Below are positions 9,936 through 17,758 of a stretch of 32,000 nucleotides of DNA, piece by piece. Both the position numbers and the translations under genes were made by a program. The notes below the pieces were generated by a model. The model ran no database searches. It was not told where the DNA came from and worked only from the letters and a program-made list of their open reading frames with translations. This DNA comes from Candidatus Baldrarchaeum yapensis (lineage in GTDB: Archaea > Asgardarchaeota > Baldrarchaeia > Baldrarchaeales > Baldrarchaeaceae): assembly GCA_016840465.1 (NCBI GenBank), contig JAEOSH010000015.1, forward strand, positions 1 through 32,000. Direction: 5' to 3'. Every line of letters begins with the position of its first letter. The first letter of the stretch is position 1.

Positions 9936-11034
9936 ACTGGAGCGGGTCCTCAGGCGCCTTGAGAGCTTAGAGTTCTACAATCAGGGGGCGCCTAGAAGGC
10001 TGCAGAGCGCTATGGGCAGAGGCAGGGTTCCCATTAGATTGAATGTTAACGAGAATCTGTTTGTACCGAGGGAAGTTACGATAGAAGTCGCAAGGAGAGC
10101 GGCCGAGAGTTTAGATCATAGGCTGTACCCTGATGGTATTGGGAAGCCCTTACTGGAGAAATTGGCTGGGTATTTGGGCGTGGATGAGGAAAATATAGTG
10201 CTGGGATGCGGGTGTGACCAGTTGGTGGATCTGTTGATCACAACGATTGGAAGGGGTGGCGTCTGTACCGTTCAACCGACCTACGCGTTTTATCGCGTGA
10301 GATGTGCACTTTATGGCGTCCCCTACAGGTATACTTTCTTCAGGGACGATTTGAGTGTTGACGTAGATCATCTGCTTGCCCTTCTCGGGTCATCGGATAT
10401 GCTCATCTTGTGTTCACCGAATAACCCGACCGGTCATAAGGTATCGAGAGAAGTGATAGAGGGCGTTGCCGAATCTTTCGACGGCGTAGTAGTGATAGAT
10501 GAGACGTACGCGGAATTTTCCGATGAGCAGTTACACAGGATGCCGCTAGACTTTGAGAATGTGATCGTGATGAGGACCTTCTCCAAGTCCTTTGCAGCGG
10601 CGGGCATAAGGCTGGGGTACCTTGTGGCGCCGGAGAGGATTGCCTCAGTGCTTCGGAGATTACAGATGCCGTACCCGGTTCCGGCCTTTTCTCTCAAGTA
10701 TGCGGAGATCCTCTTAGATATGGTTGATTATTTTAAAGCTGTGTGGGATGAGGTGAGGAGAGTGAGATCATGGTTTTATAACGTGCTAAGATCTGTCAGG
10801 GTCCCCAAGTTCAGAGTATTTGAGTCATATGCGAATTTTGTGTCGGTGGGAATCGACGTGGACGGTTCTTACATCATTGAAGAGCTTATGCAGAGGGGCT
10901 ATCTTGTCAGAGTGTTTCCCGACGTTCTGGGGCATAAGACCCTCGTGAGGATAACTCTAGCGCCCAAGGAAATCTTAGAGGGGTTCGTGGGTGCGTTTCT
11001 CGAGGTGTTAAGCAATGCTGTACGAGAGAATTAA
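9922..11034 (+). CDS. hisC: Histidinol-phosphate aminotransferase
   Basis: IRLNVNEN, LYPD, CSPNNPTG, IDETYAEF and the RTFSKSF...GIRLGY PLP motif. Confidence 0.93.
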   Translation: MRGGKLERVLRRLESLEFYNQGAPRRLQSAMGRGRVPIRLNVNENLFVPREVTIEVARRAAESLDHRLYPDGIGKPLLEKLAGYLGVDEENIVLGCGCDQLVDLLITTIGRGGVCTVQPTYAFYRVRCALYGVPYRYTFFRDDLSVDVDHLLALLGSSDMLILCSPNNPTGHKVSREVIEGVAESFDGVVVIDETYAEFSDEQLHRMPLDFENVIVMRTFSKSFAAAGIRLGYLVAPERIASVLRRLQMPYPVPAFSLKYAEILLDMVDYFKAVWDEVRRVRSWFYNVLRSVRVPKFRVFESYANFVSVGIDVDGSYIIEELMQRGYLVRVFPDVLGHKTLVRITLAPKEILEGFVGAFLEVLSNAVREN

Positions 11035-12136
11035 GACTCCCGCCGGAGTTGCATTTTACAGAGAGGACGTTATTGAGTCGCTTAGGAGTGTCGATGCGGT
11101 TGTAATGGATGTAGACGGCACGCTAGTAGACACCACAGAATCCCTCACAGAGGCGATAATCAGTACTGTGAATACTATCATGGGATGGCTTACTGGTATC
11201 CGTCTTACGGGTAAGGTTATCAGGAGGGCAATAAGCGAGTTGCGCGGCTCGGGTGGGTTTAATAATGACTGGGATACTACGTATACTATAATAATCGCCG
11301 CGTTGAGTGCGTTGAGCGAGAATTTATTGGAAGGTGCACTGGCCAGACTGAAGGAGGGCAAGCGTCCGGAAGCGAATGACAGGAACATAAATGAAGATGA
11401 GGATACTATTTCTTTCGAGGTTTTGAGAAGAATTGAGGATGCGGTGAAAGTTGCTGGTGGAGAGGGCATTATTGAGGTCGAGAAGAAGATATTGGACTCT
11501 TGTGGCGGTGTGAGAAAGAGAGGTCTTCTGATGAAAATAAGGGAGGCGTTAGGATATTCTTTTGATAGGCAAAGCAGTTTATTGGTTTCGATATTCGATG
11601 AAATTTACTGTGGGTCGAAGTTGTACTCGATTCTTTATAACAGAAGTCCTATACTCGGGAATGAGCCCGGCCTTATATTTACCGAGCGCGTAATAGTTGA
11701 TAAGCGTGTTTTGAGATTTCTCTTTGAGAGAGCCGATGGGAAGCTTGGAATAGTGAGCGGAAGGCCGAGATTGCAAGCAACACTCGTCTTAAAGGATTTG
11801 CTGACAACGTTCTTCGACGATCGAGCCGTATTGTTTTATGAAGATCTCATATTCTCCGATGATAATGGTAGGGCGAGAAAGGCCCTGAAACCGCATCCTT
11901 ATGGTCTCATAAGATGCCTAGAGGCGTTATCTCCGTTCGAATTGGCCGTTTATGTAGGGGATTCTGCCGAAGATGCCCTTCTTGTCGAGAATACTCGCAA
12001 GCTCTATAGGAATGTAATGTTCATTGGGGTATATGCTTATACTCTGGATCCTCCTAGTGCGATAAAGACTTTCATGAGGTTGGGGGCCGCGGCAATTCTT
12101 CCAACGGTGAACGAAATTGTGGAGGTGCTGAGGTGA
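11015..12136 (+). CDS. HAD-superfamily hydrolase, candidate histidinol-phosphate phosphatase
   Basis: Motif I DVDGT, motif II IVSGR, KPHP and motif IV YVGDSAED. Overlaps both hisC and hisB. Confidence 0.75.
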   Translation: MLYERIKTPAGVAFYREDVIESLRSVDAVVMDVDGTLVDTTESLTEAIISTVNTIMGWLTGIRLTGKVIRRAISELRGSGGFNNDWDTTYTIIIAALSALSENLLEGALARLKEGKRPEANDRNINEDEDTISFEVLRRIEDAVKVAGGEGIIEVEKKILDSCGGVRKRGLLMKIREALGYSFDRQSSLLVSIFDEIYCGSKLYSILYNRSPILGNEPGLIFTERVIVDKRVLRFLFERADGKLGIVSGRPRLQATLVLKDLLTTFFDDRAVLFYEDLIFSDDNGRARKALKPHPYGLIRCLEALSPFELAVYVGDSAEDALLVENTRKLYRNVMFIGVYAYTLDPPSAIKTFMRLGAAAILPTVNEIVEVLR

Positions 12137-15278: not shown

Positions 15279-15295
15279 TTTAACAAAATGTTAAA
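15279..15295. promoter_or_regulatory. Inverted repeat TTTAACA-AAA-TGTTAAA upstream of the AbiE-like pair (putative operator)
   Basis: Perfect 7-bp arms with a 3-nt spacer, about 20-35 nt upstream of the likely ATG (15313/15319), overlapping a TATA-like TTTAA. Confidence 0.5.
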
Positions 15296-15312
15296 TGTTC
15301 ATAAGATTGGTG

Positions 15313-15918
15313 ATGCCAATGTTGTCAAAGGGAGTTATGAGAGTACTGGAGGTTTTGGTGGAGGAGGGCAGGCCTCTTAGGAAGGTTGAAATTGCGAAAA
15401 AGGCAGGAATCACGCCGGCTGCGGTTACGAAAATTATAAGAAAGTTGCGTGAGTTCGGGATTGTCAGGAGGGATAACGGTGCGTATTCTTTGAACGAAGT
15501 GAACCCCCTCGCATCGGTTCTGCGGGATTGGATCGTGGCTATGAAAATGCCGGTGGTGGAGGTGTTTCGGATCCTAGACAGGGCGGTCTTTAAGTATGGG
15601 TGCTATGCGGGGAAGTCTGCACTTCTAGTTTTCCAGAAATACCTAAAATCGGGTGTGCGATACGAGGGAGAAATAGAGGTGCTCGTGCGTAGGGACAGAA
15701 TTGAAGACTTCTTGAGAGAAACAAAGATTCCGAGGTTGAGACTGACATTGAGGGTGATTCCATGCGACCCCTCCGATATTTCCGATTCTGTTGAGGAGGT
15801 AGGAGTGAGTGGGGAACTCACAAAGGTAATTCCCCCGTGGAGGCTTGTGGAGGAACTCAAAAGACACGGCATCATTACAATAGCGGAAGAACTGGAGGAA
15901 GTTTTTCTTGCACGATGA
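15313..15918 (+). CDS. wHTH antitoxin, AbiEi-like (type IV TA)
   Basis: N-terminal wHTH (LRKVEIAKKAGITPAAVTKIIRKLREFGIV) plus a C-terminal domain (YAGKSALL...EIEVLV). Overlaps the downstream nucleotidyltransferase. Confidence 0.7.
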   Translation: MPMLSKGVMRVLEVLVEEGRPLRKVEIAKKAGITPAAVTKIIRKLREFGIVRRDNGAYSLNEVNPLASVLRDWIVAMKMPVVEVFRILDRAVFKYGCYAGKSALLVFQKYLKSGVRYEGEIEVLVRRDRIEDFLRETKIPRLRLTLRVIPCDPSDISDSVEEVGVSGELTKVIPPWRLVEELKRHGIITIAEELEEVFLAR

Positions 15919-17092
15919 TCTTAGGTCCGAGATTGAAAGGTTTCTCGAGTGGCTGAAGGGAGATAGGACAGAAGAGGAGGAAAGTGATTACGCCAAGGCT
16001 ATCGCACTAAAAATACTGAACACGGCCGCCCGAGGGCAGATGTCTCTATCGGGAGGAACCGGGCTGTACTATTTCCTAATACCCGAAGAATGGAGATTTT
16101 CAAGAGATCTGGACTTTGAGGTCGACAAGCGCCGAGTTAGGAGCGTCAGGAATTTTGCAGAGAGTATTGTGACATCCGCGAATGACGTTCTGAAGCGGCT
16201 AAGCTTGTATAGAGAAATAGTTATAGGTGACGCCACCATTACAGTACTGGGCTTTGTTCTCAAGGAAAGCAGAGGAATAACTGCCAGAATGGCATTTCAA
16301 TTCCCAAGTCCACGGGGTAGAGATTTATCGACGTTTGTTCCTCGGTCGGAGAGAAAGAGGCCCGATCTTGCGGGGGCGCTGATTACGCTCAAAAGAGAGG
16401 TTGGAAGAATAAAGGAAATCGAAGTATCCATTACATCTACAACAATTATAAGAAGTGAAGAGGTGGAGAGCAAAAAATTGCCCCTTTCCGTAAGAGTTTT
16501 GTGCAACAGCCTTGAGGATCATCTCTTTAACAAATTAATGGCCGTATATCGTGGTGCCGTCATAGAGGGAATAATCAGGGAGGAGGAAAAGGTTCCCTTG
16601 GGGGCAAGTGGTAGGAGGAGAGTGCATGGCAGAGACATATATGACCTCTACGCAATTCTTAGAAGAGGACAATTGAACCCACAAGCCGTGAGAGCAAAAT
16701 GCTGGCGTGAGGGTGTCTCCTATCCTCACCTATTGTTATCAGTAGTATGGGCGTTGGAGAGAATAAAGATGCGTCATGATCTTTTAAGGGACGTTGAGTG
16801 GAGAGTGCCTCCCGAACGCCGTCCGACCGACCTATCCTCAATGTGTGATTACATTGCCAATAGGTTGCGTCTCCTCCTCCCTCTAAGATTCTACATATTA
16901 TCAAAATATGCAGTTACAACAGGGGAGCTTCTCACCCTGGCGCCCAAATCAACTGTATACTACACCCTAGCGAGATTGAAAAAAGAGGGGCTGCTGGAGG
17001 AAGTTGTAGATGAAAGGGATGAACGTAGGAGGATCTGGATTGTAAAGTTCCGTCCGTATCCTGAAAAACGGCATTCTGAGATTGATGCTTGA
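15908..17092 (+). CDS. AbiEii/AbiGii-family nucleotidyltransferase toxin with C-terminal wHTH extension
   Basis: LSGGTGL...RFSRDLDF and RDIYDL motifs of the DUF1814/AbiEii family. The C-terminus PKSTVYYTLARLKKEGLLEEVVDERDERRR is MarR-like. Confidence 0.8.
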   Translation: MHDDLRSEIERFLEWLKGDRTEEEESDYAKAIALKILNTAARGQMSLSGGTGLYYFLIPEEWRFSRDLDFEVDKRRVRSVRNFAESIVTSANDVLKRLSLYREIVIGDATITVLGFVLKESRGITARMAFQFPSPRGRDLSTFVPRSERKRPDLAGALITLKREVGRIKEIEVSITSTTIIRSEEVESKKLPLSVRVLCNSLEDHLFNKLMAVYRGAVIEGIIREEEKVPLGASGRRRVHGRDIYDLYAILRRGQLNPQAVRAKCWREGVSYPHLLLSVVWALERIKMRHDLLRDVEWRVPPERRPTDLSSMCDYIANRLRLLLPLRFYILSKYAVTTGELLTLAPKSTVYYTLARLKKEGLLEEVVDERDERRRIWIVKFRPYPEKRHSEIDA

Positions 17093-17275
17093 TGAGAAGT
17101 ATTTGTAATCGCCAATGCCATTATCAAGCACTCTTAGCAGGAACAACTTGCTTTTTTCGTTGAAAACCGATTATAAACGGCAAACAGCCATTGCCTCGGC
17201 ATCTTTAAATAAAGGATGAGGTATCGCTATCATTTAGTCACGTTCCTATGACTGCTTCTGAGAGGAGAAAAGAGA

Positions 17276-17758
17276 ATGAGTGCAAGGTATTGCCCGTACT
17301 GTGGATCCGTGTTGCCGCCGGGGGCAGCGTTCTGTCCGGTTTGTGGGGCTAATATCGCTCCACCTGAGGCAGTTCCTCCCGTTCCTTATGCTCGACCAAC
17401 TCAGCAACCCAGCCCAGTTGCTCCCTCACCACCTCCATCACCTACTATTATGATCGACACAAAGAGCCCTGAACTTGCTGCCATCCTGTCACTGATAATT
17501 GCGGGTCTCGGACAAATATATGTTGGGAGAATCCTCAGGGGCCTCATTATAATGTTTGTCCTGGTGCCATTGTTATGGGGGTCGATAGTACTAGGTGCAT
17601 TTATGCTGATATTCGCTTTTTGCGTTGCCAGATTTATATTCTCGGTGGTATTCGCTCTGATCACCTTTGTTGTATGGATATGGCAAATAATCGACGCCTA
17701 TGAGCTTGCCAAGCAATATAATAGTATTCTGATGGCCACTGGGCGGCCACCATGGTAA
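17276..17758 (+). CDS. Zinc-ribbon / Pro-rich / TM2-domain membrane protein
   Basis: CPYCG...CPVCG, a Pro-rich linker, then KSPELAAILSLIIAGLGQIYVG (TM2-like) and hydrophobic helices. Confidence 0.8.
   Translation: MSARYCPYCGSVLPPGAAFCPVCGANIAPPEAVPPVPYARPTQQPSPVAPSPPPSPTIMIDTKSPELAAILSLIIAGLGQIYVGRILRGLIIMFVLVPLLWGSIVLGAFMLIFAFCVARFIFSVVFALITFVVWIWQIIDAYELAKQYNSILMATGRPPW

Follow-up and report, generated by a model that had tools for sequence, protein, structure and literature searches.

The 32,000-nucleotide stretch of Candidatus Baldrarchaeum yapensis analysed here (contig JAEOSH010000015.1, positions 1 to 32,000, hereafter the window) carries two overlapping genes on its forward strand, the second of which encodes a nucleotidyltransferase of the AbiEii/MenT type with a predicted winged helix-turn-helix (wHTH) at its C-terminal end. 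For brevity, the two products are referred to as the partner and the toxin. The partner gene (15295-15918, +), a putative antitoxin and autorepressor, encodes 207 residues, or 198 residues from TTG 15322, as called by one source. The toxin open reading frame (ORF; 15908-17092, +) encodes 394 residues, begins with TTG and is closed by a double stop (TGATGA). The layout is bicistronic, with a protein made of a wHTH and a C-terminal domain encoded directly upstream of the toxin. The two ORFs share 11 nucleotides (15908-15918), an overlap that suggests coupled translation of partner and toxin, and a Shine-Dalgarno-like GGAGG motif (15894-15898, +) lies within the end of the upstream gene, 9 nucleotides 5' of the toxin TTG.

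The reality of the fused ORF is well documented. The toxin protein was recovered at an identical length of 394 residues in four independent assemblies (NCBI, JGI, ENA and Logan), on contigs of up to 206 kb and with Q131R as the sole variant, and this recurrence in independent assemblies means that the fusion is an artefact neither of assembly nor of a frameshift. Between 17093 and 17275, the 183 nucleotides that lead to the next gene, no coding remnant was found in any frame; together with the double stop, this remnant-free stretch indicates that the fusion is not a simple read-through. No Shine-Dalgarno-like motif was found 5' of Met312 of the toxin, and nothing points to an internal start from which a free wHTH could be made.

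The nucleotidyltransferase and its C-terminal winged helix

The AbiEii/DUF1814/MenT-fold nucleotidyltransferase (NTase) domain occupies residues 1 to approximately 325 of the toxin (15908-16882, +), as assigned from Pfam and from an AlphaFold2 (AF2) model. The Pfam profile PF08843 (AbiEii) matches residues 42-265 (E 6.6e-13; score 49.6 bits, cut-off 22.5), and ten AbiEii models of PADLOC match at E <0.01, the best of them at 3.4e-10. An earlier note on this DNA had claimed three toxin motifs, GGT, RxSxDLDF and RDxYDL, and all of them are found in the ORF, at residues 49-51, 63-70 (RFSRDLDF) and 242-247 (RDIYDL). In the nomenclature of the family, motifs I and II (G49 G50 T51 and R63 F S65 R D67 L D69 F; 16052-16117, +) fit the pattern hG[GS] ... 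R-x-[ST]-x-D-h-D of a pol-beta-type metal site and contain the putative metal-binding aspartates and a serine at the phospho-acceptor position, motif III is LEDHLFNKLMAVYR (16514-16552, +), which includes K209, and motif IV is R242 D243 I Y D246 L (16631-16648, +), which fits the pattern [KR]-D-x-Y-D.

The conservation of these residues was evaluated in two alignments, in which the toxin was set beside 34 AbiEii proteins from 400 genomes of the same phylum (35 rows) and then beside 62 sequences (63 rows). G49, R63, D67, D69 and D246 are invariant in both, K209 is invariant in the smaller and at least 90% conserved in the larger, and D243 is at least 90% conserved. Mutations that abolish the toxicity of the AbiEii of Streptococcus agalactiae affect G49, R63, D67, D69, K173 and D192 (PMC3985639); the first four residues carry the same numbers in the toxin, and K173 and D192 are equivalent to K209 and D246 when counted through the alignment with 9hlo_B. 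Both the lysine and the arginine of motif III are required in the S. agalactiae enzyme. In the toxin, R215 lies at +6 from K209, compared with +7 in the pattern K-L-x-A-a-x-x-R, while the aligner puts R224 in the conserved arginine column. S65 of the toxin aligns with T65 of AbiEii, the phospho-acceptor by which AbiEi neutralises AbiEii (bioRxiv 10.64898/2026.01.19.700257), and corresponds to Ser78, the phospho-acceptor of MenT3 (PMC7450476). As far as sequence and model can tell, the second gene encodes a complete and catalytically intact NTase of the MenT fold.

The toxin is longer than the S. agalactiae AbiEii (394 versus 287 residues), and the extra length consists of insertions between motifs II and III and between motifs III and IV, plus approximately 55-65 C-terminal residues, made up by the wHTH of some 60 residues. 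The insertion between motifs II and III includes a basic loop of the NTase lobe, rich in Arg, Lys and Pro (residues 134-167, 16307-16408), for which the predicted local distance difference test score (pLDDT) stays under 50 and which the other aligned AbiEii do not have.

The AF2 model of the toxin, built on the 63-sequence alignment, has a pLDDT of 78.8 and a predicted template modelling score (pTM) of 0.78. The 15 top matches of the model in a Foldseek search are all DUF1814 structures, led by JHP933, MenT3, MenT4 and MenT1; OhrR, a MarR protein, comes at rank 36. Superposition on MenT3 (6j7q) gives Z 17.9 and an rmsd (root-mean-square deviation) of 3.8 Å over 253 residues, and residues 7-328 of the model cover residues 7-292 of the chain (length 290), that is, the whole of MenT3, with the fold placed at residues 3-328 overall; the other matches of this fold lie in the range Z 12.7-15.3 (MenT4 15.3, JHP933 14.3, MenT1 13.2). 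A search of the PDB with the whole toxin by phmmer returned only a globin match, which was judged to be due to chance.

In the model, the complete MenT fold is directly followed, with no linker, by a MarR-like wHTH at residues 325-385 (16880-17062, +), a region delimited from the AF2 model, the MarR superposition and weak profile matches. Its elements are a helix (326-332), a strand (335-337), a second helix (338-342), the recognition helix (347-359) and a wing made of strands 363-367 and 375-379, in the topology H-S-H-H-S-wing-S, and the wing carries D368-x-x-D371-x-R373-R374-R375. The pLDDT over residues 310-380 is 83-93. A single-sequence AlphaFold prediction has a pLDDT of only 35 overall, yet it also places helix-helix-helix-strand-strand at the C-terminal end. 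ZitR (5yi1) and AdcR (5jls) superpose on residues 325-380 with Z 8.0-8.1 and an rmsd of 1.4 Å over 56 residues, and more than 25 chains of the MarR family (HpaR, MepR, MarR, BldR and others) match residues 325-380 or 325-394 with Z 7.2-8.1, all of them starting at 325.

Sequence comparisons of the tail (residues 301-394) point in the same direction. The Pfam matches are MarR_2 (E 9.5e-4), HTH_20 (2e-3), PadR (5e-3), HTH_27 (0.012), TrmB, HTH_IclR and F-93 WHD, so that seven out of seven are winged-helix families, and the best of them, MarR_2, reaches 19.7 bits against a cut-off of 27 and is below threshold. The NCBIfam model MsvR (E 4e-4) and a Csa3 model of PADLOC match the same C-terminal stretch, and all four phmmer matches in the PDB are regulators of the MarR or PadR type. 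The alignments of the seven Pfam and four PDB matches fall on the recognition helix and on the wing, which carries D-x-x-D-x-R-R. Nine other Asgard AbiEii served as a control, and their C-terminal tails produced no winged-helix match at E<=1. Elsewhere in its genome the tail has no paralog, and it bears no relation to the wHTH of the partner.

The dimerisation helices of MarR proteins are missing: the matched ranges of the MarR chains extend from approximately residue 31 to residue 118 of 124-161, and the toxin ORF stops 15 residues past the wing. The C-terminal domain is therefore, as modelled, a MarR-like wHTH core and not a MarR regulator. The earlier note had described an AbiEii-like NTase fused to a C-terminal MarR-like wHTH of about 60 residues (the string that it quoted corresponds to residues 337-379), and had proposed modelling as a check. 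The first part is borne out by profile, alignment and fold, the second by the AF2 model, the superposition on MarR chains and a coherent set of sub-threshold sequence matches; the C-terminus does model as a wHTH, with the pLDDT and Z values given above.

The partner, the operon and its surroundings

The partner has an N-terminal wHTH (approximately residues 10-70), supported by Pfam matches on residues 15-66 (HTH_IclR 5.8e-7, HTH_24 2.5e-6, MarR 1.2e-5). Its C-terminal domain of 127 residues belongs to no Pfam family and has no homolog in 5.8 billion proteins or in the 400 phylum genomes. At 26 Asgard AbiEii loci used for comparison, the upstream partner has 170-300 residues and matches AbiEi_1 in 9, AbiEi_4 in 8 and AbiEi_3 in 1. 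The partner described here has the same architecture as at these loci. A comparison with the 26 partners by hhalign gave a probability of 5% and covered only the wHTH part.

The region 5' of the gene pair consists of a T-run after hisI and an AT-rich segment. It contains an inverted repeat, TTTAACA-AAA-TGTTAAA (15279-15295), which is a candidate operator and overlaps a TATA-like TTAAAT box located 24-27 nucleotides before the alternative partner starts 15319/15322; the exact 17-mer occurs nowhere else in the genome (2.27 Mb). At the other end, a stem-loop with a T6 run (17136-17158, +), placed 44 nucleotides past the toxin stop by a consensus scan only, is the likely end of the transcription unit. 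No meaningful repeats were found downstream of the toxin.

The module directly follows a complete histidine operon, with hisG, hisD, hisC, a HAD-like gene, hisB, hisH, hisA, hisF and hisI. The HAD-hydrolase gene (11015-12136, +; 373 residues), located between the hisC-like aminotransferase and hisB, may encode the histidinol-phosphate phosphatase. On the 3' side the next genes encode a membrane protein with a zinc ribbon, a methyltransferase and a DUF5591 protein. The product of the first (17276-17758, +) has 160 residues, with the zinc ribbon at the N-terminus, a linker rich in Pro and a membrane segment resembling DUF5683; this gene is the immediate neighbour of the module, from which the terminator-like site separates it. 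There are no tRNA genes in the window, and no integrase, mobile-element or defence genes among its annotated ORFs.

The genome, which is 96% complete, has a second AbiE-like pair on contig 15 (L002:250-876 and L002:863-1786, +). Its AbiEii has 308 residues (Pfam E 9.6e-28), and its partner, of 209 residues and with no Pfam match, is 37-38% identical to the partners at two other Asgard loci (L028 and L029). There is also a weak third AbiEii match. The four genomes of the same order (G001-G004) are very distant: the HisF of the window finds matches there at 24-38% identity over partial stretches (28-29% in the genome that matches best), and they yielded no counterpart of the DUF5591 protein. The lineage thus has no close relative among the genomes compared, and this distance makes a comparison of synteny impossible.

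Known systems and the distribution of the fusion

The AbiE and MenAT toxins are described as stand-alone bi-lobed enzymes, and DNA binding is carried out by the antitoxin. These systems are among the commoner defence and toxin-antitoxin (TA) modules of archaea and bacteria (PMC12988326). They are now described as neutralised by antitoxin-induced phosphorylation of the toxin, that is, as type VII (PMC11375011; bioRxiv 10.64898/2026.01.19.700257), which makes the label type IV, used in the earlier note, a dated one.

The pair resembles AbiEi/AbiEii of S. agalactiae and Lactococcus (PDB 9hlo) in several respects: the wHTH gene comes first and the DUF1814 NTase second, the end of the first gene contains the start of the toxin, G49, R63, S/T65, D67 and D69 are identically numbered, and the lysine of motif III and the aspartate of motif IV are kept. 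It differs in that the similarity between toxin and AbiEii is seen by profiles only, and in that the partner matches no AbiEi/COG5340 profile. The TA context proposed in the earlier note stands in part, since an NTase gene does lie behind a wHTH protein in a bicistronic layout, but the partner is not a recognisable AbiEi/COG5340 antitoxin. With respect to the systems of Mycobacterium tuberculosis, MenT3 (Rv1045/TglT)-MenA3, MenT1 and MenT4 are the best structural matches of the toxin model, and the toxin has a serine at the position of phospho-Ser78 of MenT3. By analogy, the toxin probably shares their mechanism, tRNA 3'-end nucleotidylation neutralised by antitoxin-induced phosphorylation. 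Identity to the MenT proteins is 12-18%, MenT ends where the wHTH begins, and no solved MenT chain has a DNA-binding domain.

The likeness to the MarR family (ZitR/AdcR, MepR, HpaR, OhrR, E. coli MarR and BldR of Sulfolobus) concerns the wHTH core, alpha2-beta1-alpha3-alpha4-wing, which superposes with an rmsd of 1.4-1.9 Å, together with the recognition helix and the acidic/basic signature of the wing. What the toxin has is the core only (MarR residues ~31-113), attached to an enzyme, without the N- and C-terminal dimerisation helices and with scores under the thresholds of the family profiles (PF01047/PF12802, clan HTH). A fusion of WYL to DUF1814, the WYL-AbiGII-like NTase, is on record (PMC4012209), and a 777-residue protein of a JGI metagenome (P0025) combines AbiEii (PF08843) with the S-subunit domain of type I restriction-modification systems (PF01420). 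Both are like the toxin in joining a DUF1814 NTase to nucleic-acid- or ligand-binding domains; the domains are other ones, whereas in the present module the regulator remains a gene apart and the toxin bears its own C-terminal wHTH. A limited search of the literature turned up no AbiEii/MenT toxin that ends in a winged helix.

Outside its own species, no homolog of the toxin was found by phmmer against 1.84 billion representatives or by a word-indexed search of 5.8 billion proteins, both of which returned near-identical copies only, nor in 61 relatives or the 400 phylum genomes, nor by tblastn in plasmid and phage collections. The ESM Atlas gave sub-threshold leads only (0.85) for the whole toxin and nothing for the tail, and a fold search of BFVD gave only NTase-like matches of low TM. 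The fusion is absent from approximately 130 other AbiEii examined. Of 93 PF08843 matches in the 400 phylum genomes and 36 proteins from a global profile search with the Asgard alignment, none of those examined is fused to a helix-turn-helix (HTH) domain, and the count among the 36 is zero. The longest Asgard AbiEii ORFs were considered as further fusions and discarded, their length being due to extension of the frame at the N-terminus or to unrelated tails. A 461-residue AbiEii (L040:331-1713, +), encoded by genome G186 of the same phylum, has a C-terminal extension of approximately 200 residues with no Pfam match and a Cys-rich C-x2-C ... C pattern, which may be another accessory domain. The fusion is so far a one-off, and neither toxin nor partner has detectable homologs beyond one species.

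Proposed roles of the module

Taken together, these observations lead us to propose, with a probability of roughly 0.6, that 15295-17092 is a very divergent, species-restricted toxin-antitoxin or abortive-infection module of the AbiE/MenAT (DUF1814) type, whose toxin has gained a nucleic-acid-binding domain. If the analogy with MenT1, MenT3, MenT4 and the S. agalactiae AbiEii holds (PMC7450476; PMC10435456; PMC11375011; bioRxiv 10.64898/2026.01.19.700257), the toxin would add nucleotides to the 3' ends of tRNA and halt translation, while the partner would repress the operon, possibly at TTTAACA-N3-TGTTAAA over the TATA-like box, and would neutralise the toxin, possibly by inducing the phosphorylation of S65. 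That the wHTH of the toxin binds nucleic acid or takes part in regulation is something that we purely infer. Its most likely ligand is double-stranded DNA, because all of its neighbours are regulators that bind DNA and the wing retains its signature; binding would recruit the toxin as a co-repressor to the operator or would keep it on DNA. It is conceivable, but doubtful, that the wHTH makes this a DNA-coupled AbiE/MenT system, in which the toxin sits on operator, chromosomal or invading DNA and its release or activation is tied to occupancy. To our knowledge, such DNA-coupled regulation or sensing has not been described for the nucleotidyltransferase toxins of type IV/VII, in which DNA binding is a property of the antitoxin only.

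Several points weigh against the proposal of a DNA-binding AbiE/MenAT module. The partner matches none of the AbiEi families (PF13338, PF09407, PF11459, PF17194, PF09952) at E<=1, and its C-terminal domain is an orphan. The wHTH stays below every Pfam gathering threshold, and its structure comes from a predicted model whose alignment contains no sequence that shares the domain. Domains of the MarR type bind DNA in dimeric form, and no element for dimerisation can be seen in the toxin. The palindrome is not statistically unusual, as some 7-bp inverted repeat occurs in 12% of shuffles of the intergenic region. The module is flanked by the histidine operon and by ordinary genes and does not form part of a defence island, and, given that the cluster holds only near-identical members and no homologs, purifying selection on the fusion is not demonstrable.

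The main rival keeps the same anatomy and gives the wHTH a different ligand: it would be a substrate-recognition module that grips tRNA or another RNA and sets target specificity. This idea arises from the rigid attachment without a linker and from the lack of dimerisation helices, a lone wHTH of this kind being a poor sequence-specific binder of DNA. It is in agreement with the fact that MenT toxins vary in tRNA specificity and hold the acceptor stem by electropositive surfaces (PMC7450476), with the net basic character of the wHTH (12 K/R versus 8 D/E) and with a whole-chain pTM which, in the absence of a linker, suggests that the wHTH is fixed beside the catalytic lobes. Nevertheless, all structural and sequence neighbours are DNA-binding regulators of the MarR, PadR or ArsR type, the D-x-x-D-x-R-R of the wing is used by MarR proteins in DNA contacts, and tRNA-binding wHTHs are absent among the matches; we consider RNA recognition unlikely, if worth keeping in mind. 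Another way of looking at the locus is to suppose that it is not a TA system and that the toxin is a one-component transcription factor, whose NTase-fold domain would act as a sensor or modifier of a ligand or partner, in concert with a second wHTH regulator. Two DNA-binding-type domains in one small operon, the housekeeping neighbours in a window where no mobile-element or defence genes appear, and a partner that is not an AbiEi would all suit such a regulator. It is nonetheless improbable in view of the intact residues that serve nucleotidyl transfer and toxicity in AbiEii/MenT, of a gene order and overlap like those of AbiE/MenAT, and of an orphan status restricted to one species, which is typical of fast-evolving conflict genes and not of core regulators.

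Two further explanations concern the fused domain itself. It could be a functionless accident, for instance where a deletion fused the toxin with the wHTH core of an adjacent regulator or of a second antitoxin gene, as might be expected from its presence in a single species, its absence from every other AbiEii examined and a G+C content at third codon positions that is slightly lower in the wHTH segment than in the NTase part (0.41 versus 0.48). We regard this as quite improbable: the wHTH core is cleanly trimmed, confidently folded and begins exactly where the MenT fold ends, the ORF is intact in four of four assemblies and is closed by a double stop, downstream of which nothing is left of a former regulator, and no internal start signal precedes M312. 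The call of a wHTH could also be mistaken, residues 325-394 being a variant helical C-terminal lobe of AbiEii, given that all sequence matches fall under curated thresholds and that MAFFT sets the stretch under the C-terminal helices of other AbiEii. A miscall is very hard to reconcile with the observations that MenT3 is exhausted by residue 328, that the single-sequence and alignment-based models both give H-H-H-strand-strand, that MarR chains superpose at an rmsd of 1.4 Å and that the nine control tails gave no wHTH match.

What is new here is that a member of a well-studied toxin family bears an unusual extra domain, but the origin of this finding in one uncultured species limits its weight. 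The locus is also an example of how far modules of the AbiE type can drift, given that sequence searches of billions of proteins miss both toxin and partner and no AbiEi profile detects the partner, and finders of defence systems that require both components would miss such modules. A toxin with a DNA-binding-type domain of its own would add a point of control or targeting, through co-repression, tethering or the selection of substrates, and the protein would offer a natural construct for asking how enzymes of the MenT type choose their substrates.

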